DNA of 60,226 nt from a virus, in the IMG/VR virus record IMGVR_UViG_3300045988_163836. One strand, written 5' to 3'. The position numbers and the translations under genes were made by a program. The notes beneath the pieces were generated by a model. It saw only the letters and a program-made list of their open reading frames with translations. It was not told where the DNA came from and made no database searches. This document shows, piece by piece, positions 30,412 to 59,162 of the stretch. The stretch's first letter is position 1. Every line of letters starts with the position of its first letter.

Positions 30412-30498
30412 GGAGTCGTGGGATAATGGTATTCCAATGGATTGCTAATCCATCCTACCTCTTAGGTAGTCCGCGTTCGAGTCGCGGCGATTCCGCCA
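30412..30498 (+). tRNA. tRNA-Ser (GCU), type II
   Basis: ggagtcg..atgga-ttgctaa-tccat + long arm cctacctcttaggtagt + ccgcg-ttcgagt-cgcgg-cgattcc-g-cca. Confidence 0.85.
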
Positions 30499-30501
30499 TA
30501 T

Positions 30502-30595
30502 GTAGGAGTGCCAGAGTGGTCGATTGGGTTAGTCTCCAAAACTAATTGTAGCTACACATCCAGGGTTCGAATCCCTTGCTCCTATGCGGTATCAT
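30502..30595 (+). tRNA. type II (long variable arm) tRNA with anticodon CCA
   Basis: gtaggag tg ccag-agtggtcga-ttgg g ttagt-ctccaaa-actaa + arm ttgtagctacacatc + caggg-ttcgaat-ccctt..ctcctat. Confidence 0.45.
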
Positions 30596-32516: not shown

Positions 32517-32519
32517 TCT

Positions 32520-33035: not shown

Positions 33036-33057
33036 TTTTATAGGAGGAAAATGATTT

Positions 33058-34278: not shown

Positions 34279-34301
34279 TTTTGAAGGAGGAATAATATAA
34301 T

Positions 34302-36935: not shown

Positions 36936-36988
36936 TTTAATAAATTATAAGGGGAGAGAAATCTCCCCTTTCCATTAGGAGGATTGGA

Positions 36989-37330
36989 ATGGCTGATAAA
37001 ACTTTAAATATTCGTATTAAGTCAAAATACGATACACTTGCTAATTGGACTGCAAACAAATCAAAAGTTTTACTTGCCGGTGAAGTGGGATTTTGTTATG
37101 TACCAGCACTTACATCTGGTACAACAACCACAGCTCCTACTGTATTATTTAAAGTTGGTGATGGTACGACCACATGGGAAAAACTACCTTGGGGAGCAGG
37201 GCTTGGAGCAGATGTCCCGGCATGGGCTAAGGCACCTACAAAGCCATCCTATACCCTTGATGAAATAGGCGCTAACCCTGATGCCAACTATGTAATTTTT
37301 GATTGCGGTTCTTCAACTGTAAATATATAA
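36989..37330 (+). CDS. tail fibre N-domain protein
   Basis: MADKTLNIRIKS...KVGDGTTTWEKLPWG; terminator 37335-37368. Confidence 0.55.
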   Translation: MADKTLNIRIKSKYDTLANWTANKSKVLLAGEVGFCYVPALTSGTTTTAPTVLFKVGDGTTTWEKLPWGAGLGADVPAWAKAPTKPSYTLDEIGANPDANYVIFDCGSSTVNI

Positions 37331-37448
37331 TAATAAAGACTCCATTTTGGAGTCTTTATTTTTTTTTATCTGGACTAATTTAAATAATTTGATATTTTTA
37401 TTTTTTATATAATTTTAGAATAAGAAACATTGAAAGGAGGAACTTTCA

Positions 37449-38587
37449 TTGGCAGATAAACAATTAAAATCATTATAGTTTCCTAATATAAGTGATAAAT
37501 ATGTCGTTAAATTAACAGTAGAAGAATTACAAAATTTATTATCTGATATTAGACTTAATGGCGGAATAGCTTATTAGAAAGATATAGTTACAAGCTACAA
37601 TGATTTAAATGATAAACCTAAGATTTTAACAGAAAAAAATTTATCTGAAGAAGTAAATAATAAATTTGTAGAACTAAAATGTGTAACATTAGATGATTTA
37701 AAAAATCATACTAAAATGTTAGAAGCAAAATTTAATGGTAATGAAGAAAATGATTTAAGTGAAACCTGGATTATTCATAAAGCCCCATCTTTCTATTTTA
37801 AAAGTAATATTGAATTTGTTTCTAATGGAATAACTTATTCTTCTATAGAATATAAAAAAAATACTTAGCCCAAGAAAGATGGTATTATTCTTGAAGATAT
37901 GTTATATTATGATACCACTTGTGTTGGTCATAGTCCTCAAGATAATTCTGCTATTAATTATAAAGAAATATCTTGGGAAAATTAGGCTTATAATATAATT
38001 AAATTTACCAAAGAAAAGCCAACAGGTGATTTATTAAGATGGTTACAAGAAGATGGAACAATTAAAGGACCTAATACATTTCAAGGATTATTTAATTATG
38101 TAAATAATTAGGATAATGAAACTTTAAAAAAGGCTAAAACGTATATAAATGATGTCATGAATAATTATCATGCTCCAATAGCTAGTGAAAATACATTAGG
38201 TATAGTTATGGGCGGCGGAACTGGTATCGGTATTGATGAAAATGGTAGATTATATGCAACAGGAGAAATTATAGCTGATGCAAATATCTTATGGTCTAAG
38301 ATAGTAGAAAAACCTACTACTTTAGAAGCAATCAGCAAAGATGCGATGTGTCGAGCTATTATAAATAGTTTACCATCTAGTAGCTAGTCAGGTAATTATG
38401 CTGATTTATTAAATAAACCAGATTTATCTAAATATGCTTTAAAAACAGACATATCTGAATACACATTACCAACTGCTTCAACCTCTACTCTTGGCGGTGT
38501 AAAAATAGATAATAGTACAATTGGTATTAGTGATGGATTTATTTATGTAAAAAATACTAATTCAGCTGTTTGGACTAAATGGACAGG
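37449..38587 (+). CDS. tail fibre/structural protein (TTG start, 6 TAG)
   Basis: M(TTG)ADKQLKSL-TAG-FPN..., continuous frame to TAA 38585; every internal stop is TAG. Confidence 0.5.
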
Positions 38588-38736
38588 ATAAGTTTGAAAT
38601 TGATAACTTATTTATTATAATCTTTACTCTTTTGAAAATAGATGATTGAGAAAGATATTTAATATAGGGAAATAAATATCTTGAACTATTTTCAAAATAT
38701 TTATTTCCCTATATTTTTGTTTAAGGAGGAAATATA

Positions 38737-39729
38737 ATGGCAAATAATACATTCCAAGGCCGTATGATTTAGAAGCATGATACAAAAGCTAATTGGGATA
38801 AAGCAACTAATTTTGTCCCCTTAAAAGGCGAAATTATTATATATGATGATTTAAAGAAAATAAAAATAGGTGATGGAGCTACTAAAGTAGGAAATCTGGT
38901 TTTTATTAATGACTTAGATACTATAAATGGAAAATATTTACCTCTTGCTGGTGGTACTATGACTGGTAATATTAATATTAATAATAAAACAATTACTAAT
39001 TTAAAAACTCCAACAGCCGATACAGAAGCCGCAAATAAAAAATATGTAGATGACTAGGTTGCCGCTAATGACCATATAGTAAATAGATTTACATTTACTG
39101 CAACAGCAGGTTAGTCTACATTTACTATTCCATTTGATTTTGAAGACAGTAGCGCACTTACTGTTTATTATAATGGTATAATGATGAGGGAGATAGATAA
39201 CTATACAGTATCTAGTAAAGTAATTACACTTGCTGGATTCACAGCCGAAGCTGGTGATTATCTTACTGTAATGGGTATAGAAGGAGCTGCAGCAATTGAT
39301 TTTGGTAAAGAAGCAGAAGATGCAATTAAACAAATACAAGCTATAAAAACTTCATCAATTAATGAAATAAATACTGTGAAAGAAAAGACTCTTAAAGAAA
39401 TTAATGATTTAGTTGCCACATTACCATCGGATACTTCCAATATTATGTTTTTAAATAAAACAAACACAATGGCTGCTGATAGTAAGATTACTATGTATAG
39501 TACTTATACTCCTTCAGCAAACGGAGATGTTGCTACAAAAAAATATGTAGATGATAGTAAACCTTCAATAGTTGGTACAGCTACTACTTTTCCAATCTAT
39601 ATTGGCTCATCTACTCCCGCGTCAGGCACAGCACCTTTATTATGGATTGACACATCTTCATCTGGTACTTTTAAATATCGTACATCTAAAACTGGAACTT
39701 GGACTATCGTACCTGTTGCTTGGAGTTAA
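38737..39729 (+). CDS. tail fibre protein (TAG-containing)
   Basis: MANNTFQGRMI-TAG-KHDTKANW...KIKIGDG; C-terminus PLLWIDTSSSGTFKYRTS..WTIVPVAWS. Confidence 0.6.
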
Positions 39730-39744
39730 TAAGGAGAATAATAG

Positions 39745-40731
39745 ATGGAAATAAAAAACAATGAAAAATTATTAGATTCTTTAGTTATAAATAAAGTTCC
39801 ATCTAGGAAAATTTATAATCAAATGGTGAAACAAGGAAAAGTAAATAATGATGAAATATACATTGTAAATAAAGAAGATGACCTTCCTTATAAATATTCT
39901 TTCATTGCACAAGAAGGAGATACAACATTTACTTTTCCTTTTACTGTTGAAAATCCTGAAGATTTAAATATATTTTTTAATGGTATATTAATGACTAAAA
40001 ATATAAACTATACAATTCAAGATAATAAAATTAAGTTATTAGATTTTGCGGCATCAGCTAATGATAGTATTATTGTTCTTAATATTCGAGGAATAGAACC
40101 AGAAGACTATTTATTAGATGTGATAAATGACTTATAGATTATAAAAAATGATACTATTTAGGCTATTGATAATAAAATAAATGAATTGCCAAAAGATATG
40201 AATGAAATGCTATTAACCTCAAAAAATAATATTATGACAACAGGCAAAATAACTATGAATAGTACTTATACACCATCTAATACTGGAGACTTAACCGATA
40301 AAAAATATGTTGATTAGTAGATATAGAATAACAAAATTTCTAAAGTAAGTCAATTAACTAATGATGCTGGATATCTTACATCTCATTTGGTTAGATCAGT
40401 AAATGGAATGACTGGCGATATAAGTATCAAAGGAGCTTATGTTGGAAGTTATATAGGAAATAATGCTTTAATAAAAACTCTTAATTTTAATTTTGAACCT
40501 GCTTATTTGATGCTATTTATGGTGCAAACTAACGCTGGTACTGCTCAAAATTATATGTGTGGCATACAAGGAATGAAATACCCATTTCCTAACAATAATG
40601 GCACTTATGTTAGCTTTACTTGGAATTCAAAATCAGTTATTATTACTGCTGCTAGTAGTTATTATACTAGTATATTCAATAATAACGGTTATACTTATTA
40701 TTATATAGCGATTCCTAAATTTAATAATTAA
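39745..40731 (+). CDS. tail fibre/structural protein (multiple TAG)
   Basis: Track ORFs 39745-40137 and 40387-40731 share a frame bridged by TAG codons. Confidence 0.5.
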
Positions 40732-40744
40732 AGGAGGTTTTTAA

Positions 40745-41185
40745 ATGTCTAAACCTAAACTTATAGAATAGATTGAAAATGCAGGTGGCGTATTTATCGC
40801 AACTAAAGATATTACCACTTATAAAGAAATTAAAGATGCTTGGGACAGTGGTAAAGATATTATTGTAGTATTTAATTCAGATATTTATATGCTAACTGAA
40901 ATCCCTACTGGTAGTAATACTATAAAATTTTATTATAGAGATTTCCGTAATAGAGGTTATTCTACTACGAGTACTAAATATCTAACCTTAACTTCTACTA
41001 ATACTTGGTCTCCGTCAGTAACAATCGAATAGCCAACAGGAATAACTACACCAATGACTTGGAATGGCACTACTCCAATTACTGCATCAGTAAAATATTT
41101 ACGCCCAATATTAATATCTACTGCAGAACCAACAGCATCAGATGGTAATATCGGCGATATTTGGATACAATATGATACAAATTAA
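40745..41185 (+). CDS. structural protein (TAG-containing)
   Basis: MSKPKLIE-TAG-IENAGG...; SD aaaggagg. Confidence 0.45.
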
Positions 41186-41198
41186 GGAGTTGATTTAA

Positions 41199-43928
41199 TT
41201 GGCAAAACAAACAATTACTTTAACTAATTTATTAACTAATCCAAGTTTTGAAAAGACAGGTTGGACTGCTAATTCAGCTTGCTCAGTTAGTTACGCCACC
41301 TCTCCTAAACATTCCGGCTCTTATAGCTTAAAAGTCACATCTACCTCAAGTTCTGAATCATTAATTGTAACCTCTGACACATATGCTATCAGAAAAAATC
41401 ATATATATTATATAAGTGTTTATTTTTATGAAACTGTTAATGTATGTTCTGAAATGCAATGTTATTGGCCAATAGCAGAACCATTAGTAGGTATTGCTAA
41501 AGTAGATAAAACTAAATTAAATCAATGGCAGCGATTAAGTTGGCATAATGTACGTGCTAACTGGAATGATAATTAGACAGCTCAATTTAGATTTGATTTT
41601 GAAGGCATGGTGGGAAATACAGTAGCATATATTGATGATGCTATGCTTATTGATTTAACTGCTGCATTCGGCACAGGTAATGAACCTACTCAGGAATGGT
41701 GCAATACTAATATTGAATATTTTACTGGTAATAAAACAATTCAATATGAAGCTCCTAATAAATATGATTTAACTGTTACAACTCCTACAAAAATATAGAC
41801 TGGTGATATATTAAATTGTCCTTATAGTGGGTCTATGAAATCAGTAATTCTTCCAAAAGGATAGTATCAATTAGAATGCTGGGGCGCCTAGGGAGGCAAT
41901 GGAACTAATAATACTTCCTAGCCTGGCGGTAAAGGCGGTTATAGTAAAGGAATTATAACTCTAAATAAGAAAACTAATTTATATTTATATACCGGTGGAT
42001 AGGGCCTTAATGGAACTACTTATAATTCAAATGGAGCAACCACTGCTGGAGGATTCAATGGAGGCGGTTCTGCTACCTCAGTTAATAGTCGAGGAAGCGG
42101 TGGCGGCGGCACAGATATTCGCATTGCTGTCGATTCTTTATATGCTAGAGTTTTAGTCGCTGGTGGTGGCAGTGGTTCTAGTGGCTATACTAGTTTGGCT
42201 GGTTTTGCTGGTGGAGGAATATCAGGCAAGACATATAATAATCAAGACTCATCTAGTGGTGGCAGCTGGTATGGTGGTGGTGGTAGCCAAACCTAGGGTG
42301 GTGCAGCAAATACTAGTTATTCTAATTATACTACTGCAGGAAGCTTCGGACAAGGTGGAAATTATAATAGTGGTTCAAACACTTATTATGGCTCAGGAGG
42401 GGGCGGCGGCTGGTATGGCGGCGGTGGTGCTATCGGTGTTGGAGGTGGTGGTTCTGGTTATATGTACACTTCCAGCTCAGCCTCTTATTATCCTTCTGGT
42501 TGTTTATTGAATTCATCTTATTATTTAACTAATGCTACTATATTAGCAGGAAATGCTGCATTTATTTCTCCAACAGGTACAAGTGAAACAGGCCATGCAG
42601 GTAATGGCTATATACGTATTACCGTTATAGAAGCTAGTTCTGGAAATACTTTAGTGAAAACTACTTCGAATAATTGGAAAGAACCAGTACAAATGTTCGT
42701 AAATACTGGAAGTAGTACTACTATTTCTAGTGGATTAGTTGAATTAGAATACATTGAAAGTACCGGTACACAATATATTGACACTGGCATTAAAGCTTCA
42801 AAAAACCTAAAGGTTGAAGCTGATATAGATGTATCTGCTGCGAGTGGATGGGTTATGATACTAGGTGATTATACTAGTGGTTCATATTTTTCTTGGTGGA
42901 GACAAAATACGACTATGTATGCTTATTATGGAAGTAATAATAAAACGCTTGCAGAATTAACTGGGAAAAGAAAATATATTTCAAATAATACTAATAATAT
43001 ATGGAGCATTGACACTAGCAAAATAACTGTTACTCCAAATTCTAGTGATTTCTCAAAGGATGGAAATAATTTATATTTATTTAGTGTAAATAATGGTGGC
43101 AATTATAATAAAGCTTCAATGAAATTATATTCTTGTAAAATATATGATAATGGTACATTAGTTCGTGATTTCATCCCAGCTAGAAGGATATCTGATGGGA
43201 AAGCTGGCTTATGGGATAAAGTTAATCTTAAATTTTATACTGATGAAAATGGTGGCAATTTTACAGCAGGCACAGAAAAATCTGCTATTGCAGCAATAGG
43301 AACACCGATTGAATATATATAGTCTAGTGGCACATAGTATATTGATAGTAATTTTATTCCCAAAGCTACAACTCGCACTATTATGAAAGCTGAACCAATG
43401 TCTTGGAGTACTTGGGGTGCATTTTTTGGCACAAGAAATGCTACTTCTCCTACTGCTTCTCAAGCTTATAATGCTGCAATTCCAGCCGCTACATTATATC
43501 GTAGTGATTATTTTGGTTCATCATTAACTGCTGAAACTCCTACTGTTATGCAAATAACAAATATTGATAAAAATAAAAATATATGTTCATTTAATAATAT
43601 TATGATTACCAATACTTCTAGCACAGTAAATGCTACAACTAATATGTTTTTATTGGCATTAAATGATGTTGGAACCGCTAAATACTTTTTAAGTGCAAAA
43701 TTATATTCTTGTCAAATTTATGATGGAAACACTTTAGTCCGCGATTTTATTCCAGTTAAAACTACAACTAATATTTATGGTCTATGGGATAAAATAAATA
43801 AAGTATTCTATAAAAACGCCGGAACAGGCACCTTCACTGGCGGACCTGCTGTTACCTTGACCGGCTGGCATAAAATAAAAGGTATATGGGCAAAAACTGC
43901 CGCAAACACATGGAGTTAGGCATTATAA
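41199..43928 (+). CDS. giant Gly-rich fibre/receptor-binding protein with duplicated C-terminal domain (TTG start, about 15 TAG), about 909 aa
   Basis: Track ORFs 41199, 41607, 42462 and 43383 are all in frame 0. The G-rich segment 41877-42460 holds TAGs and Gly runs. The duplicated C-terminal module has shared motifs such as GTQYIDTGI/GTQYIDSNF and KLYSC(K/Q)IYD(N)GTLVRDFIP, with GLWDK. Confidence 0.55.
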
Positions 43929-44011
43929 AATTTGATTTTTAAAAAATTATTTTATATAATATAAATGTAAATAAGAAATAAATTTTTTATTTACAGCATT
44001 TAACTCACCCC

Positions 44012-44050
44012 CTTTCTTGAATAGGACATAATAATTAAATTATTATGTCC
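44012..44050 (+). terminator. terminator
   Basis: aataggacataataatt aaattattatgtcctatttttt. Confidence 0.6.
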
Positions 44051-44097
44051 TATTTTTTATTTATATAAGAAAGAAAAAGTAAGAAGGAGGTATACAA

Positions 44098-44532
44098 ATG
44101 GCTTCAAAAACTAGTACAAATTTAAATACTCTTTCTATCAATCAAATCCCTACTAGAGCTTTATATAGACAATTAAAAGAGGATAATTAGTTAAATGAAG
44201 AACAATCATTAGTAATTATAGACGATGATTTTGAATAGCGTCTTTATAAAGATGAAGTAAATGTAATGAGCGCCAATGGTAAAATTTAGATGGCGAATAA
44301 CTATGTCCCAATATCTGGTAATGATATAGCTACTAAAAATTATGTGGATAATAGTAATCCAACTATAACTCCTACTGTTGGTTTTACGTCAAACAATTAG
44401 ATTTATATTGGGACTACTGCTCCTTCTTCTTCATCTGCTCTTATTTGGGTAGATATTTCTAGTAATGGAGTATTGAAATATCGTACATCATCAAGCGATT
44501 CATGGAAACCTATCCCAGTTGCTTGGGGCTAA
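44098..44532 (+). CDS. fibre-like protein (TAG-containing)
   Basis: C-terminus ALIWVDISSNGVLKYRTSSSDSWKPIPVAWG is homologous to the 38737 gene C-terminus. Confidence 0.5.
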
Positions 44533-44953: not shown

Positions 44954-46946
44954 GGTGAATAAAATAAATTAGTATAGAGATGGACCTACTAGAGCATTTT
45001 GGCCTACAGTTTTTGATGGATTTGAATTAGAAATTCATTTAGTAGACCATTGCAACTTACAATGTAATAATTGTAATCATTTTTCTCCTTTGGCTTCTCC
45101 ATTTTTTATTACTTACGAAGATTTTCAAAATTAGCTAAAATTAGTAAAAAAAACTTTGCCTTCTATTAAAGTTTTAATGCTATTAGGGGGAGAACCATTT
45201 TTACATCCTAATTTAATAGAATTATGTTAGATAGCTAGAAATATTCTCCCAGAGATAGAAATAAAGATATTAACTAATGGTATAATTTTAAATAATTATG
45301 ATACAAAAAAATTAAAAAAATTAGAAGAATTAAATATACATATAAGTATTTCTAAATATCCTAATCAAGACTACAAAGATTTTAGCAATAATAAAAATAT
45401 CTCATATTTAAATGATAGATTTTTCTTTGATTAGACATTGGTTGACCCTTTAGGTAAACAAGATAATAAAACTCGTATATATAGTTGTCCAAATAGGATT
45501 CCTTGCTTTACATTAAAAGATTTTAAAATATATTTTTGTCAGTTTGGGGCACACATAAATAATTTTTGTAATTATTTTTTTAAACAAATTCCATTAATAG
45601 AAAATAAAGATTTTATAAAACTAACAGAAAAAACAAATTTACAAGATTTATAGAATTTAAAATTATGTGAAAAAAATATATGTAAATATTGTCGGCCAGG
45701 AGATGTGGTTGATTGGGATCAATCGACTAAAACTTATGATGAATATACTAAAACAGAAAAAGAATTATTCTTAACAAATTATAATGAATATTATAAAAAA
45801 TTTGTTGATTTTTCTAATTTTTAGGATTTTTCAAAAAAGAAATCTTGGAATAACGTTGATTCTTGGTATGCTCCTGATAAAATGAGGACATTTAGAAAGC
45901 GCAACGAAGGAAAAATTGATATTATAATTCCTTTTTATACAATAAATAAAATATATTTTTAGAAATGTTTAGATTCTGTCTTTAAACAAAGTATTATTAA
46001 TGATTGTGTAATCTATTTAATTAGTGATAATTCTCCAGATAAAAAATATGTATATGAATTTTATAAAACTTATAATAATATATACAATATAATATTATTA
46101 GATACTTAGAAAACTAAATCAGGCCCTGCATCAGCTAGGACTCTAGGAATTAATAATAGCTTCAATAAGTATTTTTTCTGTTTAGATAGTGATGATTATT
46201 TTTATGATAATAAGGCTTTAGAAAATTTATATATATATGCTGAAAATAATAATTATGGAATTGTAAATGGATAGACCTATGATAAAAATGAATTTATCCA
46301 TGACGCTCATAGTTATTTATATAATAGAGAATTTTTTATAAAAAATAATTTTTCTTATGGCAAATTTATTTATAATGAAGATAGATTTTTATCATTATAG
46401 ATTTTTGATTTTTATAATGGTGCAATTCCCTTCTTAGAATAGCCTATTTACGTATATAATAGAAATAATGAAAGTATGGGTAAAGATATTAATTTTTTAT
46501 ATATGACAATAAATGAATTAATTGTTTTTACTTATTTTTATAGACAATATTTAACAAATAAAAAATATGAAAATAATCATTTTATTTTCGAACATATTTT
46601 TAATAAAATTATTGTAAATTTATCTATAATAGAAGAAGTAACTGATAAAGACAAAGAATATCTAAAAGATATAAAACAAGAAGAAGCAATTTGTTTAAGT
46701 CTTATTTGTTTAATTTTAATTAATGATAAAATTTTGTTTAATAAGTTATCATTGTTTTATAAAGATTTATTAAATAAAATAAAAAAAGAAGATTTTATTA
46801 AATTAAATAATACTGTATTATTTAATTTAAATAGTCTATTTAATAAAGGAAATCATATACTTGATAATAATAAACTAATTAAACAATTTATTAACAAAGA
46901 GTATATTGATTTTATAAAATACGAGGAGGAAAAATATGGCAATTAG
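44954..46946 (+). CDS. radical SAM domain fused to family-2 glycosyltransferase (about 12 TAG)
   Basis: HCNLQCNNCNH (CX3CX2C), LLGGEPFLHP; GT2 motifs ISDNSPDKKY and CLDSDDYFYD (DxD). Probable GTG start. Confidence 0.55.
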
Positions 46947-47451
46947 TTCAAACTCTAAAATAAATTGGAGTGATATTTAGACTATTTTTACTAATTTAAA
47001 TACCGCAAGAAAAAAATTTTTCCCTAGTTAGAGTGATTTTCAAGCGACTCCTGGAGGATAGTCAACACAAGCTATGGCTCAATTAGCTCAGAATTTAAAT
47101 AAGTATATAGAATCTTTTTCCAGTAGCAGTTATGTTGGTTCAAGAGCAAATATTAGTGAAAATCCTCCTTCGGCAGGAGATTTAATTAGTCCTATTATTT
47201 TTAATAGATTTACTACTACAATTAGAAGCATAAATGATACTTGCGCTCATGATGCGAGTTATAATGCTAGCCATAGAGGTAGTGGATATAATAGTAGTTG
47301 GGATAGTTCTGATTATGGAGCAGGATGGGATACTTCTTATAATTCTTCTCATGATGGTTCAGGTTATCATTCTTCCTATTGGTCAGGGGTTAATCAAACC
47401 TGGTGTTCATCTCATGGATGCTCTAGTCATTACGGTTCTAGGCACACTTAA
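46936..47451 (+). CDS. Ser/His/Tyr/Gly-rich small protein (candidate modification substrate)
   Basis: 171 aa with 3 TAG; C-terminal half is low-complexity: SYNASHRGSGYNSSWDSSDYGAGWDTSYNSSHDGSGYHSSYWSG. Confidence 0.45.
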
Positions 47452-47471
47452 CATTTAAAGGAGAAAAAGGA

Positions 47472-48905
47472 ATGAAATATATATCGGATTTTTCAATAGA
47501 AGAATTATCTATTATTGGAGCTTGTGGATGTAATTTAAATTGTAAATATTGTCATTCAGCTTAGGCTGTAAATGAATATAGTAAATAGTTACAAGAATAG
47601 ACTATAAAGGCTCTTAAAGATGGAAGTTATTTATAGAATATTAAAAATGTTATGAAAAAATTAGAAGTTGATCCATTAAATATCCATAAAATAAGTTTTT
47701 GGGGTCAAGAACCTACATTAGTATTAGAACATTTTACTAAAAATTTAAAAGATTTTTTTGAATTATGTCCCAATATTAATGAATTTTTTACTTCTACTAA
47801 TGGTATGGCTAATACTGATAAAATAATTGATTTTTTAAAAACTTTTGATAATTTAACTAAAAAACATTCATTTATTTGTATTTAGTTTTCTTATGATGGA
47901 GATTATAGTACTGATAATGTAAGAAGAGCTAATTCTAAAGTAGTATATAATAATTTAAAATATTTAATAGAAACTTTAAATACAATTCGTTTTAATAATA
48001 TTACTATTGCTCTTAATACTCATGGAGTTATTAGTAATGAACTCATAAATCATTTTAATAATAATTACAAAGAAATAGAATAGTATTTTATTTAGGCTAA
48101 TGAAAAAATTCAATATTTAACTAATTTAAATCTAAATAAATCTGTTTTTATCAAAAATACTATAAATTTCTCTAGCGAATTACCTATTAATACTTCTAGC
48201 ATTGATGGTATTAATTGGAGTAATTTTATAAAAATTTGTAAATCAATTGGAGAACATTATCCAGAAATTAATAATCCAGATAAAGACTCTATTGAAGGAT
48301 TATTGTGTTTACCTCGAAAAGCAAAAAAATTTTTATTAAAAAATTTGGAATGTTCTAATTTAGATGAAGCTCTTGATAAAGTTTTAGCATTCTCTAATAA
48401 AGAATTAAAGAATTATAATAGAAACTTAACTCCATTCTTATATTGCGGAGAAAAAACAGGAAGCTTAAAACTTTTATATGATGGAACATTAGTAAATTGT
48501 TAGAGTTCTCTTTATGATACTAATCCAGAATATATTAATACTAATGATAAAATTGGGATTATTAAGCAATTTGCCGCAAATCATCATAATTATATAAATC
48601 CATTGAAAGATAAAGATGAAGATATAAAAAATTGTTGTTTTTTATTTGAAACTTTATCTGTATCTAGTTTTTTTTATGTATATAATTAGATTGTTTCTTT
48701 ATTATGTAATTTACGAGAAGTGCATTAGATAAGTCAAAAATTTAATGATGATAAATTTTTAATGAAAGCAGCATTATTATTAGTACCTATACATTCTTGC
48801 TTTTTTAACAGTTTAATCAGTACTGGTTCTTATTTCTTTAGAGATAGTGGATTTTTAAGAAGATATTGTAATGGAATTATTGAAGAAGTTTTGGAGGAAA
48901 AATAA
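47472..48905 (+). CDS. radical SAM / SPASM-like enzyme (multiple TAG)
   Basis: GACGCNLNCKYCH, GQEPTL; Cys-rich C-terminus. Confidence 0.55.
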
Positions 48906-50275
48906 TGATAACAACGTCTATTGATTTCCAATAGGAAGAAAATATTCTATTTTAGAATTTTATTTTTAATCATGAATTAAAAAAGATGGAAAATGAAATA
49001 TTAGAATTAATTATAAGACAAGACTGTAATCAAAAATGTGATTATTGTTATATAACTAATTATGGCAAAGAATTATATCCAGAACATTTTTCTAATTCTT
49101 AGATATTAGATAATTTAAAATTATTATTAGATTATTTTGATAAAAAACAAATAAAACCTTTAGAATGGTCATTATTCGCCGGAGATTTATTTTATGATGG
49201 ATTAATTTTTGAAATACTAGATGTATTTTTTCCGTATTTAAAAAAATGGTATGAATTTGCTTATAAAATAAAAGAAAAAGGTAAACTAGTAATACCTACT
49301 AATGGTAGTTTTATTTCTGATAATGAAAAAGTAATAAAAATAAAAAAATATATCCAAAAGATGAAAGATATAAATGTAGAAATTCATTTTTCATTTTCTA
49401 CTGATGGGCCGTATAGCACTGAATTTAGAGAACATAAAGATTTAAATGATGAATATTTTAATAAATTATTTGAATTTGCTACAGAAAATAATGATGGCTT
49501 CCATCCTATGATTTCTAGCCAAAATGTTGATAAAGCCATTAAAACTTATGATTGGTTTAAAAAGAAATTAAAAGAATACAATTCATGGTAGAAAACTCCT
49601 TATATGTTAGAAGTTCGAAATAATAATTGGACTCAAGAATCTATAGAGAATTATAAAAAATTCTTAAAACATATCTTTGAAGATAGATTGAATGATTGCA
49701 ATAATGATATTAATACTATGGCTTATGCAATGTTTAAAGGGGATGGGGCTAATAATACTCCTACATTTAATGAGCACAATGGAGATCCTATACGATTAAT
49801 GAATTTATCAGATAAAGAAGACAGACATAACCGAATAAGCTGTGCATTGTAGTCTACTGTCCATATAAGGGTTGGAGATTTAGCTATCGTTCCTTGTCAT
49901 CGTACTTGTTATAATCATTTAATTGGTGGACATTTTAAAATAAATGATGAAAAAACAGAGATAATTGATTTAATAAGTGATAATGCCACAGCTTATATAG
50001 GAATGAAATCTTTTAACCCTGTTTATGCTCCAAGATGTTTAGAATGCTGGTGTAGAGATGTCTGTATTAAAGGATGTTTGGGAGCTTAGATAGAAACTTA
50101 TGGTGATTTTTCTATCCCTTGTTTATCAGTTTGTAATTTATTTCAAGAAAAATATAATTATTTATTTAAATTATATTTTGAAACTGGAGTTTTGAAAAGT
50201 GCGAAAGATCAAAAAATATTACCAAAAGTAATAGAAAACATAGCTATAGAATTGGGGTATGATTTAAATGGATAA
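48905..50275 (+). CDS. radical SAM / SPASM-domain enzyme (multiple TAG)
   Basis: RQDCNQKCDYCY; C-terminal CHRTCYNH...CLECWCRDVCIKGC. An alternative start is ATG 48986. Confidence 0.55.
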
Positions 50276-50527
50276 TTTAGATAATATTTTAAAAGAAATT
50301 ACAAATAATATTATAAAAGAAAATAAGGGATATATGGATTTATTATTTGTTATATACAATAATATGGTTACTTTAGAAGAACCAAATCCAGAAGTCAATA
50401 AAAAAATAATTTATACCTTAGCAAATTTATTATAGAATTAGGATTTACGACTAAAAGATTTAAATATAGATTATTCAAAAGAATTAAATAAATTAACAAA
50501 TTAGCTATATTCTATAGGAGAATAAAA

Positions 50528-51376
50528 TTGATTAAATTTACCTTACCTGATTTTTACTATTTTCATACTGTAAATGATAAATTTATTAATTTATCAAGAA
50601 GCCATACTAATTGGCTTCTTGATAAAAACATAGTTTTTTCCTATATTAGAGGGACATTCCCTTATAATATTTGGAATGGAGGATTAAATAACATGGTTGG
50701 TGATACTTTATTGTATCCTAATATAGAATTAATAATTAAGCAAAGTAATTTACCTTTGTGGTTAGATTTTTCTAATATTTTATTAGAAAAATCAGATTTC
50801 TATGATGTAATGAGTAATGTAATTTTAAAATTATTACCAAATAATTGCATTTTTGAAATTAGTAATTTAGATTTATTAAATTATATAAATAACAAATTTC
50901 CTAATTTGAAATATGTTATTTCTAAAAATGCTAATATCTTATATCCTCTTACTCCCGATATTATAAATAATTTTCATCAAAATTTAAATCCATTATATAT
51001 AATAATCCCTAACGAGTTTAAAACTTCACAGCAATATTTAAATGAAATTAATAATAAAGAAAATATTATAATTCCAGTTAATAATCTTTGTAATCCAAAA
51101 TGTAAAAATTATTTTCAATGTCCAATAGTAGAAAATAATAATATATTAAATTATACATTTGAACCTACATTTTGTAATTGTAAAAATTCTATAAATAATA
51201 AACAATATATAACGATTAAAGAAATTAAAGATATTTATATCCCTATGGGTATCACTAATTTTTTAATAGATTATTTCTCTAACAATGAAAATGAATACGG
51301 TCTATTTTTAATTAATTATTTTATTAAACCAGAATTTAAAGAATATGCCTTTCAAGAATTATTTATAAGGAGATAA
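50528..51376 (+). CDS. paralog triad member A (unknown function)
   Basis: MIKFTLPDFYYF...WNGGLNN; paralogous to 51387 and 53695. Confidence 0.5.
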   Translation: MIKFTLPDFYYFHTVNDKFINLSRSHTNWLLDKNIVFSYIRGTFPYNIWNGGLNNMVGDTLLYPNIELIIKQSNLPLWLDFSNILLEKSDFYDVMSNVILKLLPNNCIFEISNLDLLNYINNKFPNLKYVISKNANILYPLTPDIINNFHQNLNPLYIIIPNEFKTSQQYLNEINNKENIIIPVNNLCNPKCKNYFQCPIVENNNILNYTFEPTFCNCKNSINNKQYITIKEIKDIYIPMGITNFLIDYFSNNENEYGLFLINYFIKPEFKEYAFQELFIRR

Positions 51377-51386
51377 AATATAAGTA

Positions 51387-52319
51387 ATGATTAATTTTAA
51401 TTTACCAGGTATGTATGAAACATACCAATTAAATAAATTAACAATTGAACAACTTAATAAATAGCCAGAAATTTTTAATAAAAATATTACAATTCATGCT
51501 TGTTATGGAAATTTCCAATTTTGTTCTTGGGAAGGCGGCAGAACTTTTACTAATTTTAAAACTCATTAGGCTTTAAAGAAAGATATTGAGGAAATTTTTA
51601 ATTTTTATAATTCTTATAATATTGCGGTCAGATTAGTTTTTACAAATTAGTTATTAACTAAAGAAAATTATAATAATCGTTTTGAAAATCTCATTTTAGC
51701 TATTGGAAATAATGGATTGAATGAAATTGTAATTAATAATGAAGGGTTAGAAGAATATATTAGAAATAAATATAATAAGTATAATTTTATTTCTTCAACC
51801 ACTAAAAGAATTACAAATTTAGAACAAAGTTTAAATGAAATTAAGAAAGCTCAATATAAATTTATTTGTTTAGATTATGATTTAAATTCTAATATAGATT
51901 TTTTAAAACAAATTCCTTTAAATTTAAAAAATAAAATTGAATTATTATGTAATGCAATTTGTATTCCTAATTGTCCAAATCGTATTAATCATTATAAAAT
52001 CAATAGTGAATATGCTTTATCTTATGGAAAACCTTATACATTAAATTGTAAAGCAGTTAAAAGTGTTAATAGCCCAGAAGTTATTGCTTATAAGAATACA
52101 GTAACATTAGATAATATTTATAATTTGTATTATCCTCTTGGTATTGAATAGTATAAATTAGAGGGACGTTCTTTAAATTATATTGATAATATATGTACTT
52201 ATGCTCGATATTTATTATTACCAGAATACCAATATGATTTTATTGAACATTGTGTAACAGATATTTTAGGAGTCACTGATGAACGACAAATACTGCTTTG
52301 TAACACTTGCAACAACTGA
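51387..52319 (+). CDS. paralog triad member B (4 TAG)
   Basis: MINFNLPGMYETYQ...; in frame with track ORF 51717-52151 through TAGs. Confidence 0.5.
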
Positions 52320-52914
52320 TAAATATATTAAATGTGCTTGTGCCTTATATTTTTCATTAAAAAAAGTTAATAGTAAATATCCATTTTTACTATTAACTAC
52401 TAATAATGTATCAGATATTTATTTTAAAATTTTAAAAAAAAATAATATAAATTATAAAATAATAGAATAGCCAATTTATTTTTGTGGAGATTCTAATTTT
52501 TATAAAGATACCGCTAATAAATTTTTTATTTATACTTTAACTTAGTACAAAAAAATTTGTTTTATAGATGCTGATATTTTAATTGCTGAAAATATTGATA
52601 ATATTTTTGATTATCCAGATGGTAGTTTTTATGAAGTATATGATAACTAGGAATCTAAAGGACGATTAAGTGGCGGAATAGCTATAATAAAGCCAAATAA
52701 AAATTTATATAAATCAATATTATAGTTTTATATAAATTTTCAAACAGATGAAGAAATATTTAATATCTTATATCCTAAATATTATCATTTACCAAAATTT
52801 TATTATAAACATGATACTGACCATTATCCTGATAAATGGGCTTTTCATTTAACAATATTTAAAATAAAAAAATTAATTGAACATACAAAAAATTTAACTA
52901 TACTATTGAGGTAA
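52279..52914 (+). CDS. family-8 glycosyltransferase (4 TAG)
   Basis: CFVTLATTDKY...FIDADILI matches the LgtC/glycogenin-like GT8 N-terminal motif. Confidence 0.55.
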
Positions 52915-52916
52915 CT

Positions 52917-53663
52917 ATGGATTATTTTTTATATGGATTGATCGATGGTTCTTACCAGCATGGAATAAATAATAACACAAGTGATATAGATATTATTGAA
53001 ATCTATTCTTCTTTTATAAATATGGAAAAAGAATTAAAAAAAATTTCAAATTTTGATTTAAATTTAATTCCATAGGAATAGTCTAATAATTTTATGAAAA
53101 AATTTAATATTATAAATTGGAATCCTTCAAGGCGGATTTATACAGGAGAACATTTTATTTATAATTTATTTTATAATAATAACTATAGTTATTATAGATG
53201 GTTATTCCCTTATCATTATTTAAGTGATAATGAATTTACTTTAGAAATAAAAAAAATTAATGAAGATATAGTTAAAGAAAATTTACCAGTCATTTATTCT
53301 CAATTAATTAATGAAAGTAATAGATTATTTTAGACTGGATTACGAGAAAATTATTATAAATTAAAAAATTATTATAAATTAATTTATAAATCTTTTATTG
53401 ATCTAATAATAATAATTGAATATTATAAAACAAAAAGTTATAAACAAAGTTTATAGCTAGGAATGTATAAACCATATATTTTAGATATAAAAAATAATTT
53501 TAATAATTACAGTAATTTTGATTTTATAGTAAAAAGAAATGAACTTTTAAATAAAATTTCAGAAATAAAAAATTTTTATTTAAATGCTCCTACTAACACA
53601 AAATATCAAAATTAGTTAATTCAAAAAATGGAGAATACAAATTATTCAAAATTTTATATTTGA
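52917..53663 (+). CDS. nucleotidyltransferase-like protein (TAG-containing)
   Basis: GSYQHGINNNTSDIDII minimal NTase motif. Confidence 0.45.
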
Positions 53664-53694
53664 TAAAAAGTAAAAAATATTATATAATTTAAAT

Positions 53695-54570
53695 ATGAAA
53701 AAAATAAATTTAAATTGTCCGGGATTTTATACTGGATTTAATATATATAAAACTCTTTTAGAATTACAATAGACAGCTCCAGAATGTTTCAATTTTAATG
53801 TAGCTATAGAGAGTATATTCGATACATTCCCAAATATGATTTGGAATGGAGGAACTGTCAATCAAGGCTATCAACCTTCATTAGAAAAAATAAAAGAAAT
53901 TATTGATTTTTATTATGGAAATAATATAGAAATTGCTTTAACCTTAACAAATCCATTATTAACAAAAGAAGACTTGTATGATAGATATTGTAATAAAATC
54001 GTTTCCTTATGTGAAAATGAAAATAATTCAATTTTAGTTTCTTCCTCTATTTTAGAAGAATATATAAGAAATAAATATCCTAAATTTAAAATTAAAAGAA
54101 GTATAATAGCTTCAAATAAAAATACAGATTATTTGTCTCTTTTAAATAAATATGATAAAATTGTTTTACCTCGAAGACAAATAAAAGATTTTAAGTTTTT
54201 AGAATCAATTCCAATAGAAGTAAGAAATAGATTTGAACTTTTATGCAATGACCCTTGCCCGATTATTTGTCCATATTTATATAAACATTATAATGGATTT
54301 GCTAAAATAACTTTATATGAAGAAGTAACTTCAAAAGATATTTTAAAATGTAAAACATTAAAAAGTGATGATCCTTTAAAGAATTTTCATTATAAGAATG
54401 ATCAAATTACTTATAATGAAATATGTGAAAAATATTTACCATTATTTTATAACAGCTTTAAATTAAGCGGTCGAAATGATGTATTCACTATAATTTTTTC
54501 AATAGTTCCTTTTTTCTTTAAGCAAGAATATCAATTAGAATTAGCACATTATTTATGTTGTATAATTTGA
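53695..54570 (+). CDS. paralog triad member C
   Basis: MKKINLNCPGFYTGFNIYK...MIWNGGTVNQGYQP. Confidence 0.5.
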
Positions 54571-54635: not shown

Positions 54636-54708
54636 GCCGGCATAGCACAGTTGGTAGTGCAATTGATTTGTAATCAATAGGTCGGGGGTTCGAATCCGTC
54701 TGCCGGCT
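54636..54708 (+). tRNA. tRNA-Thr (UGU), no encoded CCA
   Basis: gccggca ta gcac-agttggta-gtgc a attga-tttgtaa-tcaat aggtc ggggg-ttcgaat-ccgtc tgccggc t. Confidence 0.7.
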
Positions 54709-54787
54709 CGCTATCATGTGAAAGCCTTCTCGTGGCGATAGTGTTTTAACTAATTTCACAATTATTTATTAAAGGAGTCATTTAGAT

Positions 54788-55423
54788 ATGGCATACATTT
54801 ATTAGATAATAAATAATATTAATGGAAAAATTTATGTTGGTAAAACAGTAAAAAATAATATTTAGGAACGTTGGAAAGAACATCTTAAAGATTATAAAAA
54901 ACCTAGATGTGAAAAACGTCCTTTATATGACGCAATGAATAAATATGGTTCAGAAAATTTTTCTATTAAAGAGTTAGAGGAATGTCCATTAGAAGAACTT
55001 AATGATAAAGAAGTTTATTGGATTGAAAAATTAGGTTCTTTTAAATATGGATATAACGCTACAATTGGCGGAGATGGCAAACAATATATTGACTATGATT
55101 TAGTATGCGAAACATATAAGAATTTACAATGTATTGTAGATACTGCTAAACAATTAAATATTAGTGAAGATTCAGTTTCTAAAATTTTAAAATTATATAA
55201 AATTGATATTATTCCTAATGCTAAAATAGTTCAAAATAAGTATGGGAAAATAATTAATATGTATGATTTAAATGATAATTATTTAAGGACTTTTCCATCA
55301 ACAACTGAAGCAGCTAAATTTATGGTAGAAAATAAATTAACTAATTGTAAAATGACTACTATAAAACAACATATTTCTGAAGTATGCAAATGTAAACGAA
55401 ATACAGCTGCTAAGTTTAAATGA
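54788..55423 (+). CDS. GIY-YIG homing endonuclease 2 (in-frame TAG)
   Basis: MAYIY-TAG-IINNINGKIYVGKT; paralog of the 29289 gene. A long hairpin lies downstream around 55463-55545. Confidence 0.7.
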
Positions 55424-55629
55424 AAATATGCTTAATTATTATACCATTAGCCAAGATTGGATAGTTAATAAAACCGTTTCTAGTTAATAGATTCTAGATG
55501 GCCGGGACTCAAAACTGCTGGCAATTCTAATCTTGGCTATTTTCTTTTATTTGAAAAAATTAAAAAAATAGTATATAATATATATACAAAATAAAGAAAA
55601 AAATAAATGAGAAAAAGGTGTTAAAAGTT

Positions 55630-55983
55630 ATGGAATATTCTCTGGATAAGTACAAGTATTTTATTCCCACTAAGGCAGATGGTACGCCGTATAAGGTTGT
55701 TGCAGTTTCTACTTATGCTGGTAGGACTGTGCGTGGTGTAGCCAAGTGTGATCCGAAGGATACATTTGATACTGAAAAGGGTAAGCAGCTTGCCGCAGCA
55801 CGTTGCCAGGCGAAGGTCAGTTCTCAGCGTCTGAAGCGTGCTACTAAGAAGCTTGATGAAGCTGCTAAGGCACTTGAGAAGGCACAGAAGTATTATGATG
55901 ATATGACTGTGTATTTCAATGATAGTGCAAGAGATAAGGAAATGTATGATAGCGTAGTTGAAAGACTCGCTAAGGAAATGTAA
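55630..55983 (+). CDS. Lys/Ala-rich small protein, atypically GC-rich
   Basis: Intact ORF with higher GC than the genome; followed by terminator gggtaattaattaccc (55991-56008). Confidence 0.5.
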   Translation: MEYSLDKYKYFIPTKADGTPYKVVAVSTYAGRTVRGVAKCDPKDTFDTEKGKQLAAARCQAKVSSQRLKRATKKLDEAAKALEKAQKYYDDMTVYFNDSARDKEMYDSVVERLAKEM

Positions 55984-56918: not shown

Positions 56919-56993
56919 ACTGGTGTCGCCAAGCGGTAAGGCACAGGACTTTGACTCCTGTATTCGTTGGTTCAAATCCAGCCACCAGTGCCA
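56919..56993 (+). tRNA. tRNA-Gln (UUG)
   Basis: actggtg tc gcc-aagcggtaa-ggc a cagga-ctttgac-tcctg tattc gttgg-ttcaaat-ccagc caccagt g cca; leader is shared with the tRNA at 24079. Confidence 0.8.
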
Positions 56994-59087: not shown

Positions 59088-59162
59088 TCCGGCTTTGGGT
59101 AACGGTTAGCTCAGCTGACTCTAAATCAGCAAGTCTCAGTTCGACTCTGAGAGCCGGTGCCA
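59088..59162 (+). tRNA. amber suppressor tRNA (anticodon CUA), glutamine-type identity
   Basis: tccggct tt gggt-aacggtta-gctc a gctga-ctctaaa-tcagc aagt ctcag-ttcgact-ctgag agccggt g cca. Loop CUCUAAA; weak 1-72 pair (U-U) and G73, as in tRNA-Gln. Confidence 0.8.

Follow-up and report, generated by a model that had tools for sequence, protein, structure and literature searches.

A TAG-recoded phage gene cluster encoding radical SAM, U32-like and glycosyltransferase proteins beside a small repeat protein, its probable substrate

Introduction

Bacteria are well known to tailor ribosomal peptides with radical S-adenosylmethionine (rSAM) enzymes. In the triceptides and related rSAM cyclophane peptides (maturases XyeB, YhhB, FxsB, HaaB and HtkB), an rSAM/SPASM-type enzyme is encoded beside a precursor with iterated aromatic-X-X units; the synthases act on an Omega1-X2-X3 motif, in which all aromatic residues are usable (PMC11499958). 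The subject of the present analysis is a gene cluster at positions 44955-54570 of IMG/VR virus record IMGVR_UViG_3300045988_163836, whose 60,226 nucleotides are referred to here as the window. The cluster consists of ten tightly packed co-directional genes once TAG is read through. It is probably a late-expressed post-translational tailoring module resembling those of ribosomally synthesized peptides that are modified after translation (RiPPs), with its own small protein, g2, as substrate. The closest formal analogies are the rSAM cyclophane systems (triceptide and His-Xaa-Ser) and the ranthipeptide systems, which work on repeat cores.

Several other described systems share single features with this locus. 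His-Xaa-Ser systems pair two rSAM maturases, HxsB and HxsC, with a His/Ser-rich repeat peptide, HxsA; TIGR03978 is presumably the second His-Xaa-Ser NCBIfam model beside TIGR03977. In glycocins, family-2 glycosyltransferases (GT2) of the SunS/GccA type occur with sublancin or glycocin F precursors, and sublancin is encoded by the SPbeta prophage. The mycofactocin pathway contains an rSAM/SPASM enzyme, MftC, and a GT2, MftF. Among the U32 proteins, UbiU and UbiV act on a quinone precursor; like TrhP and RlhA, they depend on prephenate and hydroxylate independently of O2. Recent work treats U32 proteins as hydroxylation factors and not as proteases: TrhP and RlhA both need prephenate for hydroxylation and have a Glu/Cys/Cys motif that is essential, and in B. 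subtilis both genes of a tandem U32 pair contribute (PMC6599085).

Results and discussion

A small protein with a hypervariable repeat tail

All genes of the window lie on the + strand, to which the coordinates below refer. A preliminary description, prepared from the sequence alone, had listed nine + strand genes directly after the fibre module; their positions and strand were right, but the count is ten, an 85-aa open reading frame (ORF) at 50268-50525 having been missed. It had also proposed a peptide- or protein-modification cluster with rSAM enzymes, glycosyltransferases and a dedicated Ser/Tyr/His-rich substrate, and this proposal is supported by the analysis. The presumed substrate is g2 (46936-47451), a protein of 171 aa in which an N-domain of about 105 aa, ending in NDTCAH, is followed by a disordered repeat tail of about 14 [Y/W/H]-x-x-S tetrads; it is the 171-aa Ser/Tyr/His-rich protein of the preliminary description. 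The tail holds about three Cys, and the C-terminus reads ...GSRHT. An AlphaFold (AF2) prediction gave three helices with a predicted local distance difference test (pLDDT) score of 70-86, and a disordered tail with values below 30. No match to g2 was found in Pfam, NCBIfam or PHROG.

The g2 family (n = 45) has an N-domain of about 100 aa in common (WSDI..YTNLNTAR.KF ... G.LI.P ... INDTCAH), and its members all end in tandem short repeats that diverge between lineages. Most tails are built on [F/Y/W/H]-[N/R/D]-[S/G]-[S/G]; taken together they contain 24% Ser, 14% Asn, 12% Gly and 18% Tyr plus Phe, with a modal aromatic spacing of 4. Elsewhere in the family the repeats are FNSS/YNSS or nonamers (SYDGSYRGS, GNGWSQGAN, NSYGDSNAR). 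In four related loci that also encode a YcaO protein (L026-L029; related loci are given L numbers throughout) the repeats are Cys/Thr-rich, as in SNTCSNG, a combination with YcaO that is expected for azoline-type chemistry. Between g2 and a close relative, P0091, the N-domains are 88.6% identical and the tails 39.4%. A conserved recognition domain joined to a hypervariable core is characteristic of RiPP precursors.

The Omega-X-S units of g2 match the motif used by the triceptide synthases, so that g2 has the iterated Omega1-X2-X3 motifs by which triceptide precursors are recognized, and the FNSS/YNSS tails can be read as F-x-S or Y-x-S. The module differs from triceptide systems in its repeat period of 4 or 9, in the occasional Gly at X3, in its leader-like domain of about 100 aa and in having two or three rSAM enzymes per precursor. 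It is also phage-encoded and includes U32-like, glycosyltransferase and YcaO partners, and its crosslinks are putative. The g2 repeats are mostly Y/W/F-x-x-S and not the H-x-S of the His-Xaa-Ser peptides. The thioether chemistry of ranthipeptides cannot be the main modification of g2, because the tail has so few Cys.

Radical SAM enzymes and glycosyltransferases

Two rSAM genes follow g2 directly. The first, g3 (47472-48905; 477 aa), matched Pfam Radical_SAM at 3.2e-7 (31.1 bits; cut-off 29.5), and six Cys are invariant across its 13 orthologs: C20/C24/C27 and C325/C343/C443. The protein fails the seven-Cys SPASM pattern, its extra conserved Cys being limited to the last three, as in a twitch-like auxiliary domain. 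The second, g4 (48905-50275; 456 aa), scored 21.3 bits, below the same Radical_SAM cut-off, yet its CxxxCxxC motif (C41/C45/C48) is invariant in 13 orthologs. So are all seven Cys of its SPASM pattern (C313, C331, C378-x2-C381-x5-C387-x3-C391, C410), which follow the TIGR04085 arrangement C-x9-15-G-x4-C ... C-x2-C-x5-C-x3-C ... C. The SPASM hidden Markov model (HMM) itself was sub-threshold (17.8 vs 27). The SPASM-like C-termini earlier ascribed to both enzymes thus hold for g4 and not for g3.

All weak NCBIfam matches of g3 and g4 were to peptide maturases (CbpB, YhhB, PapB, nif11, XyeB), those of g3 being CbpB, YhhB and PapB. The PapB model aligned over g4 residues 33-401, and a profile of the g4 family found the SCIFF maturase CteB (5wgg) as its best PDB match (4.6e-5), extending over the rSAM core and the SPASM region; single-sequence PDB searches with g3 and g4 gave nothing meaningful. 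These are the points of likeness to the SCIFF/ranthipeptide systems, as the weak YhhB and XyeB matches are to the triceptides. The scores are distant from membership in each case: 26.9 bits against a cut-off of 340 for PapB, 24.8 against 445 for g3 with YhhB and 16.4 against 450 for g4 with XyeB.

The first gene of the cluster, g1 (44955-46958; 667 aa, 12 in-frame TAG), encodes an rSAM domain fused to a GT2 domain, with a helical C-terminal region. Both domains were identified with confidence: Radical_SAM (PF04055) at residues 30-133 (5.1e-11; 43.5 bits, cut-off 29.5) and Glycos_transf_2 (PF00535) at residues 323-455 (7.7e-16; 58.9 bits, cut-off 23.3). The domain assignment made earlier for 44954-46946 therefore stands, and the gene end moves to 46958, since the TAG at 46944 is read through. 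The CxxxCxxC motif (C33/C37/C40) is invariant in six orthologs, and C178, C184, C195, C243 and C246 are also conserved. HxsC was the fourth-best NCBIfam match of the rSAM core (3.5e-8) with 32.7 bits against a cut-off of 267.9, and FxsB gave 18.2 bits against 370; g3 and g4 had no Hxs match. No characterized 3-CyFE family is thus reached by g1, g3 or g4.

In the GT2 domain of g1 a DSDD motif spans residues 411-414, with D411, D413 and D414 conserved. The nearest solved glycosyltransferase in a PDB sequence search was GalT1 (5hea; 7e-12), a member of the Streptococcus Fap1 serine-rich-repeat glycosylation pathway. A second glycosyltransferase, g7 (52279-52914; 211 aa), narrowly missed the Pfam GT8 cut-off (PF01501; 4.4e-5, 23.6 bits vs 24.3). 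With phmmer, residues 5-153 matched glycogenin-2 (5e-11) and glycogenin-1 (1.7e-10) among matches of 5e-11 to 1e-9, and a DAD motif is present (FIDADIL). This homology to solved GT8 enzymes, together with the DxD motif, qualifies g7 as a glycogenin-like GT8, as had been proposed. Glycogenin is a Tyr-O-glucosylating enzyme; the nearest solved relatives of both glycosyltransferases thus act on proteins, and both DxD motifs are intact. The resemblance to serine-rich-repeat adhesin glycosylation (GalT1/dGT1 plus GT8) and to glycogenin extends to the Ser/Tyr-rich tail of g2, but at the sequence level it does not go beyond the GT-A cores (E 1e-11), and the GtfA/B initiating pair and SecA2/Y2 export are absent from the module.

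The preliminary description had called the pathway glycocin-like. There is a GT2 in a ribosomal-peptide cluster, as in glycocins, and one related locus, L005, lies in an SPbeta-like element (YonJ, YonG). The label was nevertheless dropped: PDB and NCBIfam searches with g1 revealed no SunS-type enzyme, g2 lacks the disulfide-stapled helix-loop-helix core, the GT2 forms part of a fusion with an rSAM domain, and the rSAM and U32-like content has no counterpart in glycocin clusters.

The combination of rSAM/SPASM and GT2 with multi-copy repeat cores and a leader-like N-domain also recalls mycofactocin, and with it a different outcome. The modified repeats might be excised by the U32-like proteins or by other proteases and released at lysis as many copies of a small cyclophane or quinone glycopeptide, similar to pyrroloquinoline quinone or mycofactocin, or as an antimicrobial. 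U32 proteins were originally described as peptidases of the collagenase type, a C39-like peptidase is encoded 5 kb downstream of the module in L011, and the window has an M28-like peptidase at 17909-18907. We regard this outcome as quite unlikely. The module shows no conserved protease or exporter, the MftC model (TIGR03962) was far from reached (17.5 bits vs 265), g2 ends in ...GSRHT and not in Val-Tyr, and U32 proteins are no longer viewed as proteases. A released small molecule would in any event be a sub-case of the tailoring of g2, lacking a conserved protease.

Three U32-like paralogs

The paralogs g5 (50528-51376; 282 aa), g6 (51387-52319; 310 aa) and g9 (53695-54570; 291 aa, one in-frame TAG) are 26-30% identical to one another (g5-g6 30%, g5-g9 26%), which agrees with their earlier recognition as a mutually related triad. 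They had no Pfam, NCBIfam or PHROG assignment, and none matched PF01136 at E <= 0.1. A relative 99% identical to g9 was modelled with AlphaFold on 73 homologs, at a pLDDT of 95.2. The top structural match of this model was the peptidase-U32 protein Mk0906 (Foldseek E 5e-6), and among viral models it matched the "Peptidase" of Escherichia phage OLB35 at a template modeling (TM) score of 0.65-0.70. Sequence signals were weaker: Pfam Peptidase_U32 was matched by 13 of the 73 relatives (best 2.9e-4), the NCBIfam UbiU model gave E 0.098, and a PDB profile search with the U32-like alignment returned nothing, so that fold comparison alone succeeded. On this modelled fold the trio are classed as remote U32 relatives with triosephosphate isomerase (TIM) barrels, outside PF01136 by sequence. 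Of the two folds suggested earlier, the TIM barrel is thus the one predicted; a methyltransferase fold was excluded by the U32-type barrel.

Five residues are invariant in the U32-like family (E181, C188, C192, H198, C219), which comprises 2,638 cluster representatives at E <= 1e-3. Compared with the hydroxylation factors TrhP and RlhA (PMC6599085, PMC5727448), the trio has the TIM barrel, and its family has a Glu followed by Cys at the barrel that may correspond to theirs. The Glu-Cys-Cys order is that of TrhP (E162/C170/C177), but the spacing differs: E-x6-C-x3-C...H...C in place of E-x7-C-x6-C, with g6 carrying E...C-x3-C-x3-C...H. The trio lacks the C-terminal domains found in TrhP and RlhA. 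The trio consists of tandem paralogs, as do YrrN/YrrO and UbiU/UbiV. Because g5 lacks the conserved Glu of the family, it may be a non-catalytic partner. Orthologs of g5 occur in L005, L012 and L054, and those of g6, 36-45% identical, in L005, L007, L012 and L054. Two relatives, P0156 (595 aa) and P0266 (673 aa), are tandem fusions of two or three U32-like barrels, which is consistent with the paralogs working as heteromers. A Tyr-rich low-complexity protein beside the lone U32-like gene of L035 was considered as a further substrate and discarded; it is the acidic linker of an SH3b-NlpC/P60 lysin.

The substrates of known U32 enzymes suggest a second alternative, in which nucleic acid is hypermodified: the U32-like proteins would hydroxylate pyrimidine C5 in DNA or in tRNA or rRNA, the glycosyltransferases would glycosylate the bases and g8 would nucleotidylate, for protection against restriction. 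Phages commonly glycosylate modified bases, two of the three characterized U32 systems (TrhP and RlhA) have pyrimidines of RNA as their targets, and many distant U32-like phage homologs have neither an rSAM nor a repeat-protein neighbour. Thymidine hypermodification pathways, moreover, include rSAM enzymes (reviewed in PMC8989533). The gene content of the module makes this alternative very unlikely. It contains no nucleotide-metabolism or DNA-binding gene; the linked partners are a repeat protein, SPASM and twitch-type rSAM enzymes with peptide-maturase affinities and, in some lineages, YcaO; and the nearest solved glycosyltransferases, as noted, are protein-directed.

Conserved gene order and distribution

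The same core order, a g2-like gene followed by an rSAM, an rSAM/SPASM, a small protein of 82-147 aa and one to three U32-like genes, was found in the window and in L005/L016, L007, L011, L012, L013, L015, L022-L030, L032 and L054. Two near-identical IMG/VR contigs (105 and 137 kb) share the order of the window. L005/L016 is an SPbeta-like element of Clostridiales Family XIII bacterium PM5-7 with the standard code; the remaining core loci are metagenomic phage contigs, mostly 100-220 kb, from uncultured phages. The synteny sought in related phages was thus found, assembled independently in many samples. The conserved core is composed of the precursor, two rSAM enzymes and U32-like proteins, while g7 was found within the module in the window lineage and in no other core locus.

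Accessory genes vary. The rSAM-GT2 fusion occurs in the window, L005, L011, L012 and L019-L024, where its orthologs are found, and YcaO (about 595 aa) in L011, L019-L024 and L026-L029. A 311-aa stand-alone protein with no Pfam or NCBIfam match lies just upstream of the U32-like genes in L007, L015, L022 and L027. After the U32-like genes, a protein of 215-266 aa with an I(D/N)HHHD motif is encoded in L005/L016 (15552-16199), L013 (14686-15486) and L032; it too had no Pfam or NCBIfam match. In L016 this is followed, with an overlap of 11 nt, by a bona fide class I-beta 3-deoxy-D-arabino-heptulosonate 7-phosphate (DAHP) synthase (16189-16992; NF006421, 389 bits vs a cut-off of 335), and then by phage YonG and TerL genes. 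DAHP synthase is the first enzyme of the pathway to prephenate, a circumstantial point of likeness to the U32 hydroxylation factors. L054 encodes an aldo-keto-reductase domain fused to 4Fe-4S ferredoxin-type motifs (12761-13849) between its g4-like rSAM and U32-like genes, a possible electron donor for the module.

Module loci use the standard code (for example L005 and L013) or a TAG-recoded one. For the U32-only locus L010, a 105-kb ENA contig, TGA read-through fits best, and U32-like relatives in phages fitting TGA read-through were also seen in L031, L038 and L044. Judged by these sequences, the module has apparently moved across recoding regimes.

A scan of 185,579 species genomes yielded two module loci only and did not extend L005, and no locus turned up among records of cultured phages. 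Among 50,697 GenBank phage records, megablast with the fibre region and cluster found no match, tblastn with g4 found nothing, and tblastn with g9 found three unannotated human-faecal contigs only. PHROGs gave no useful match for any cluster gene. No account of the module was found in the literature on phage-encoded rSAM, U32 or RiPP clusters, in INPHARED records or in the Pfam, NCBIfam and PHROGs models, and the phAss-1 recoded-phage paper makes no mention of such genes; the cluster is in this sense undescribed, as had been supposed. The rSAM tailoring of a ribosomal repeat peptide is an already known kind of system. What is new, judged by the literature and family libraries searched, is that a U32-like trio is combined with an rSAM-fused GT2, that hypervariable aromatic/Ser repeats follow a leader-like domain of 100 aa, and that the spread across codes is restricted to phages.

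Fibre genes and the CXXX-repeat pair

The cluster directly follows fibre genes at 31443-44532, and this linkage is conserved in a second lineage. The 909-aa fibre of the window (41199-43928) is rich in Gly in its middle part and has two LamG-like repeats at its C-terminus; its C-terminal half is 68% identical to the LamG-type fibre of L054, a 193-kb phage. A 144-aa fibre-related protein just upstream of the cluster (44098-44532), whose C-terminus resembles that of the fibre gene at 38737-39729, is 59% identical to the product of L054 4658-5092. Tail-fibre paralogs of the window that form a run at 31443-41185 have an N-terminal module of about 60 aa in common (MADKTLN.RI..K.DT.ANW...L..GE......KIGDG.T.W..L) and differ in their distal domains.

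In L054 the 144-aa homolog directly precedes a supercluster in which a CXXX-repeat pair (5138-8008) and the g2 module are contiguous. Its order is LamG-type fibre, 144-aa homolog, CXXX-repeat protein, two small genes, rSAM, g8-like, g2-like, g3-like and g4-like rSAMs, a 213-aa protein, the aldo-keto-reductase/ferredoxin fusion and two U32-like genes. In the window the CXXX pair lies apart. It consists of a fourth rSAM/SPASM-type enzyme (20991-22334; Pfam Radical_SAM 8.5e-7), which shares 52% identity with the rSAM that in L054 is encoded next to the g8-like and g2-like genes, and a 216-aa protein (22306-22956) whose translation shows a long C-x3-C repeat tail behind an N-domain of about 100 aa. 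The latter is presumed to be the substrate of the former; it is 39% identical to the L054 protein, which was weakly flagged as PF27846 (tSAM_targ_Cxxx_rpt). The pair is of the type of the CXXX-repeat rSAM target systems (TIGR04115 maturase, PF27846 target) and joins the g2 module head-to-tail in L054. What had been described as a first and a second cluster is therefore one module elsewhere. U32-like genes also stand beside CXXX-type pairs in L009 and L034, and thioether chemistry may operate in this partner system. Homology between the N-domains of g2 and of the CXXX-repeat protein was considered and rejected (hhalign probability 5%); the g2 family has no detectable homology to the CXXX target.

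These neighbours bear on a third alternative, raised in the preliminary description, in which the glycosyltransferases, rSAM enzymes and U32-like proteins act on the upstream fibres for receptor recognition or immune evasion, and g2 is an accessory or scaffold. To the position of the cluster after the fibre genes, and of the LamG-type fibre and 144-aa protein before the module in L054, can be added fibre homologs that in L045 and L049 lie no more than a few kb from U32-like genes, and a fibre-like protein two genes upstream of the g2 homolog in L013. Mycobacteriophages are known to encode GT2 enzymes by which virion proteins are glycosylated. The enzymes, however, co-vary with the g2-type protein and not with fibres. 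In L005/L016 the module lies between HU/tRNA genes and YonG/TerL, and its neighbours in L007 and L009 are PD-(D/E)XK and other non-structural genes. The affinities of the rSAM enzymes are to leader-dependent peptide maturases, and the pairing of a conserved N-domain with a fast-evolving tail is typical of a precursor. We consider fibres as the substrate unlikely. Since the enzymes travel with a g2-type protein, g2 is favoured and is, in our judgement, likely to be what the module modifies; the LamG-fibre synteny in L054 leaves room for a virion-associated role.

The window also encodes an S-adenosylmethionine synthetase, MetK (1221-2378; Pfam S-AdoMet_synt N, M and C, 1e-34 to 1e-58), which plausibly supplies SAM for the four rSAM enzymes. 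L012 has a MetK fragment about 10 kb from the module.

Accessory genes g8 and the 85-aa protein

The g8 gene (52917-53663; 248 aa) encodes a conserved phage protein with a Pol-beta-type GS-x10-DxD motif, GSYQHGINNNTSDIDI, that fits G-[GS]-x9-13-D-x-[DE]. HMM matches were sub-threshold (Polbeta 0.039, NTP_transf_2 0.088), a PDB sequence search gave no match, and no Pfam domain was found among the best 120 of its 132 homologs. Of the earlier label, the motif remains and profile recognition does not, and g8 is a possible nucleotidyltransferase. It does not appear to be a paralog of the RlaP-type nucleotidyltransferase of the window (11644-12459), a relationship that was rejected on a non-significant BLASTP result. 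Proteins resembling g8 were found in the near-identical relatives of the window and in L054-type 193-kb phages only; the L054 homolog (45% identity) lies between the rSAM gene and the g2-like gene.

The missed ORF encodes, under TAG read-through, a small helical protein of 85 aa with three in-frame TAG. The slot between the second rSAM and the U32-like genes holds a protein of 82-147 aa in L005, L007, L011, L012 and L013. The 85-aa protein is the positional equivalent of these, and a weak N-terminal pattern is common to them at 15-33% identity.

Genetic code and expression

Under the standard code, the 9.7 kb between 44.9 and 54.6 kb contain five ORFs of at least 90 aa, one of them complete. 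Nine of the ten cluster genes can be read solely with TAG as Gln. The exception is g5, a gene free of in-frame TAG and intact under the standard code, for which the earlier statement that all genes are recoded is wrong. An amber-suppressor tRNA with anticodon CUA lies at 59088-59162 (ARAGORN, called as tRNA-Pyl), near a tRNA-Gln(UUG). The cluster genes stop with TAA (n = 7) or TGA (n = 3) and never with TAG. At the 28 in-frame TAGs of g1, g3 and g4, homologs using the standard code have Gln in 22 of 113 aligned residues (19.5%, vs a background of 2.9%), and one near-invariant Gln of the g3 family, found in 7 of 7 homologs, aligns with a TAG of the window. With tRNA-CUA, in-frame TAGs in conserved genes, TAA/TGA-only stops and Gln at the aligned positions, the read-through is genuine and the window phage uses genetic code 15, with TAG read as Gln. 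Recoding of this kind hides whole pathways from standard annotation.

These data also dispose of a concern raised with the preliminary description, that an AT-rich low-complexity or misassembled stretch mimics genes when a stop is ignored. The G+C content is 20-25% in the stretch at 44-54 kb and 17-25% across most of the cluster region, compared with 31% for the window, and the genes are invisible under the standard code. Against this, there are significant domain matches and a model of pLDDT 95, orthologous clusters occur in standard-code L005 and L013 and in dozens of independent assemblies with the same gene order, and the stops are consistent, with Shine-Dalgarno motifs before most of the cluster genes. 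The artefact explanation was rejected as extremely improbable.

The cluster carries in-frame TAG at about 1.5 per 100 codons, compared with about 0.9 for the fibre genes and about 0.2 for the genes at 0.3-20.6 kb, which fits late expression of the cluster. A perfect hairpin with a 17-bp stem and a T-run was observed at 44019-44055, directly after the 909-aa fibre gene, and no other comparable terminator-like site was found within 44.1-54.6 kb. As the sole strong terminator-like site precedes the cluster, with none inside, the cluster may be a single transcription unit. A promoter scan was uninformative (123 matches vs about 120 expected).

Proposed mechanism and significance

If g2 is the substrate, its N-domain would serve as a leader-like recognition handle that recruits the enzymes. 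The rSAM enzymes g3 and g4 would, perhaps together with the rSAM part of g1, abstract hydrogen atoms from the repeats and form intramolecular crosslinks. An aromatic-to-C-beta cyclophane in each Omega-x-S unit has the closest precedent, and thioethers would be an alternative for the Cys-rich relatives. The U32-like trio, probably as heteromers with a Cys/His-bound metal or Fe-S site, would carry out O2-independent, prephenate-dependent hydroxylation of aromatic side chains, after which the GT2 domain of g1 and the glycogenin-like g7 would glycosylate Ser, Tyr or the new hydroxyls. The g8 and 85-aa proteins would be accessory. SAM would be provided by MetK and, in one lineage, shikimate-pathway intermediates by DAHP synthase. 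What results would be a 17-kDa protein with a stiff, crosslinked and glycosylated tail, or fragments of that protein. Its synthesis would coincide with virion assembly and lysis, and it would be either exposed at or close to the tail fibres or set free when the cell lyses. Each specific chemical step is put forward tentatively and may well be otherwise, and confidence in any biological role is low.

Several observations weigh against this scheme. All of its enzymatic steps are deduced from family or fold. Both g3 and g4 fall far below every curated maturase cut-off, and in some g2-family tails the third repeat position is Gly, which is unusable for a C-beta crosslink. The U32-like assignment is one of fold plus weak sequence signals: hhalign gave a probability of 12% for UbiU and nothing for UbiV. 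We know of no U32 enzyme that acts on a protein, so such a substrate would be unprecedented. Because the distant U32-like homologs often stand alone, the trio could have a separate target. The DAHP synthase occurs in one lineage only and could simply raise the supply of aromatic amino acids, and the module has no conserved protease or exporter by which a small peptide might be released.

A more far-reaching version of the scheme can be imagined for large gut phages that infect anaerobes. Protein-directed, O2-independent aromatic hydroxylation by U32 proteins with prephenate would be coupled to rSAM crosslinking and to Tyr/Ser glycosylation, and would turn the g2 tail into a cyclophane-stiffened glycoprotein "bristle", with groups like 3,4-dihydroxyphenylalanine or quinone, on or beside the fibres and diversifying rapidly with host range. 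We think this version rather unlikely. If it held, the U32 family would have its first protein substrate in g2, and the module would be the first case of RiPP-type chemistry building a virion component.

Apart from this version, a conserved phage module that joins rSAM tailoring with U32-type enzymes and glycosyltransferases would be new in several respects. A large family of about 290 aa that current Pfam, NCBIfam and PHROG models miss would gain a testable function, and U32 chemistry could be extended from RNA and quinones to proteins. Uncultured gut phages would be seen to spend about 10-13 kb, along with SAM and shikimate supply genes, on modifying one small hypervariable protein, an investment suggestive of strong selection for a role in adsorption, competition or counter-defence. 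The module would also represent a compact, naturally anaerobic enzyme set for crosslinking and decorating aromatic/Ser repeat peptides.

Other features of the window

A family of 116-155 aa is encoded within a few kb of the module in the window (55618-55983), L007 (19110-19577) and L009 (12863-13213), with a weak Rv2632c-like Pfam signal in L007. In the TAG-poor region the window encodes the RlaP-type Pol-beta nucleotidyltransferase (6e-6), a metallophosphoesterase (12657-13436; 1e-11) and the M28-like peptidase (1e-7); these are presumed to be early genes. Three large paralogs of 475-572 aa with Cys-rich, zinc-ribbon-like C-termini (8733-10451, 14749-16392 and 18883-20310) have in common a SIHPLDY(L)(T/S)(M/L)S(D/E)N..(W)(E/R)SC motif; the one that was scanned, 8733-10451, had no Pfam match.

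The window was found to contain fourteen tRNA genes, in an array at 24.5-30.6 kb (24562-30587) and at 54636-54709, 56919-56993 and 59088-59162. Two GIY-YIG/NUMOD1 homing endonucleases (29271-29939 and 54788-55423) have nearly identical N-termini, and the second directly follows the cluster and a tRNA-Thr (54636-54709). These homing endonucleases may mark mobile-element junctions around the low-GC cluster.

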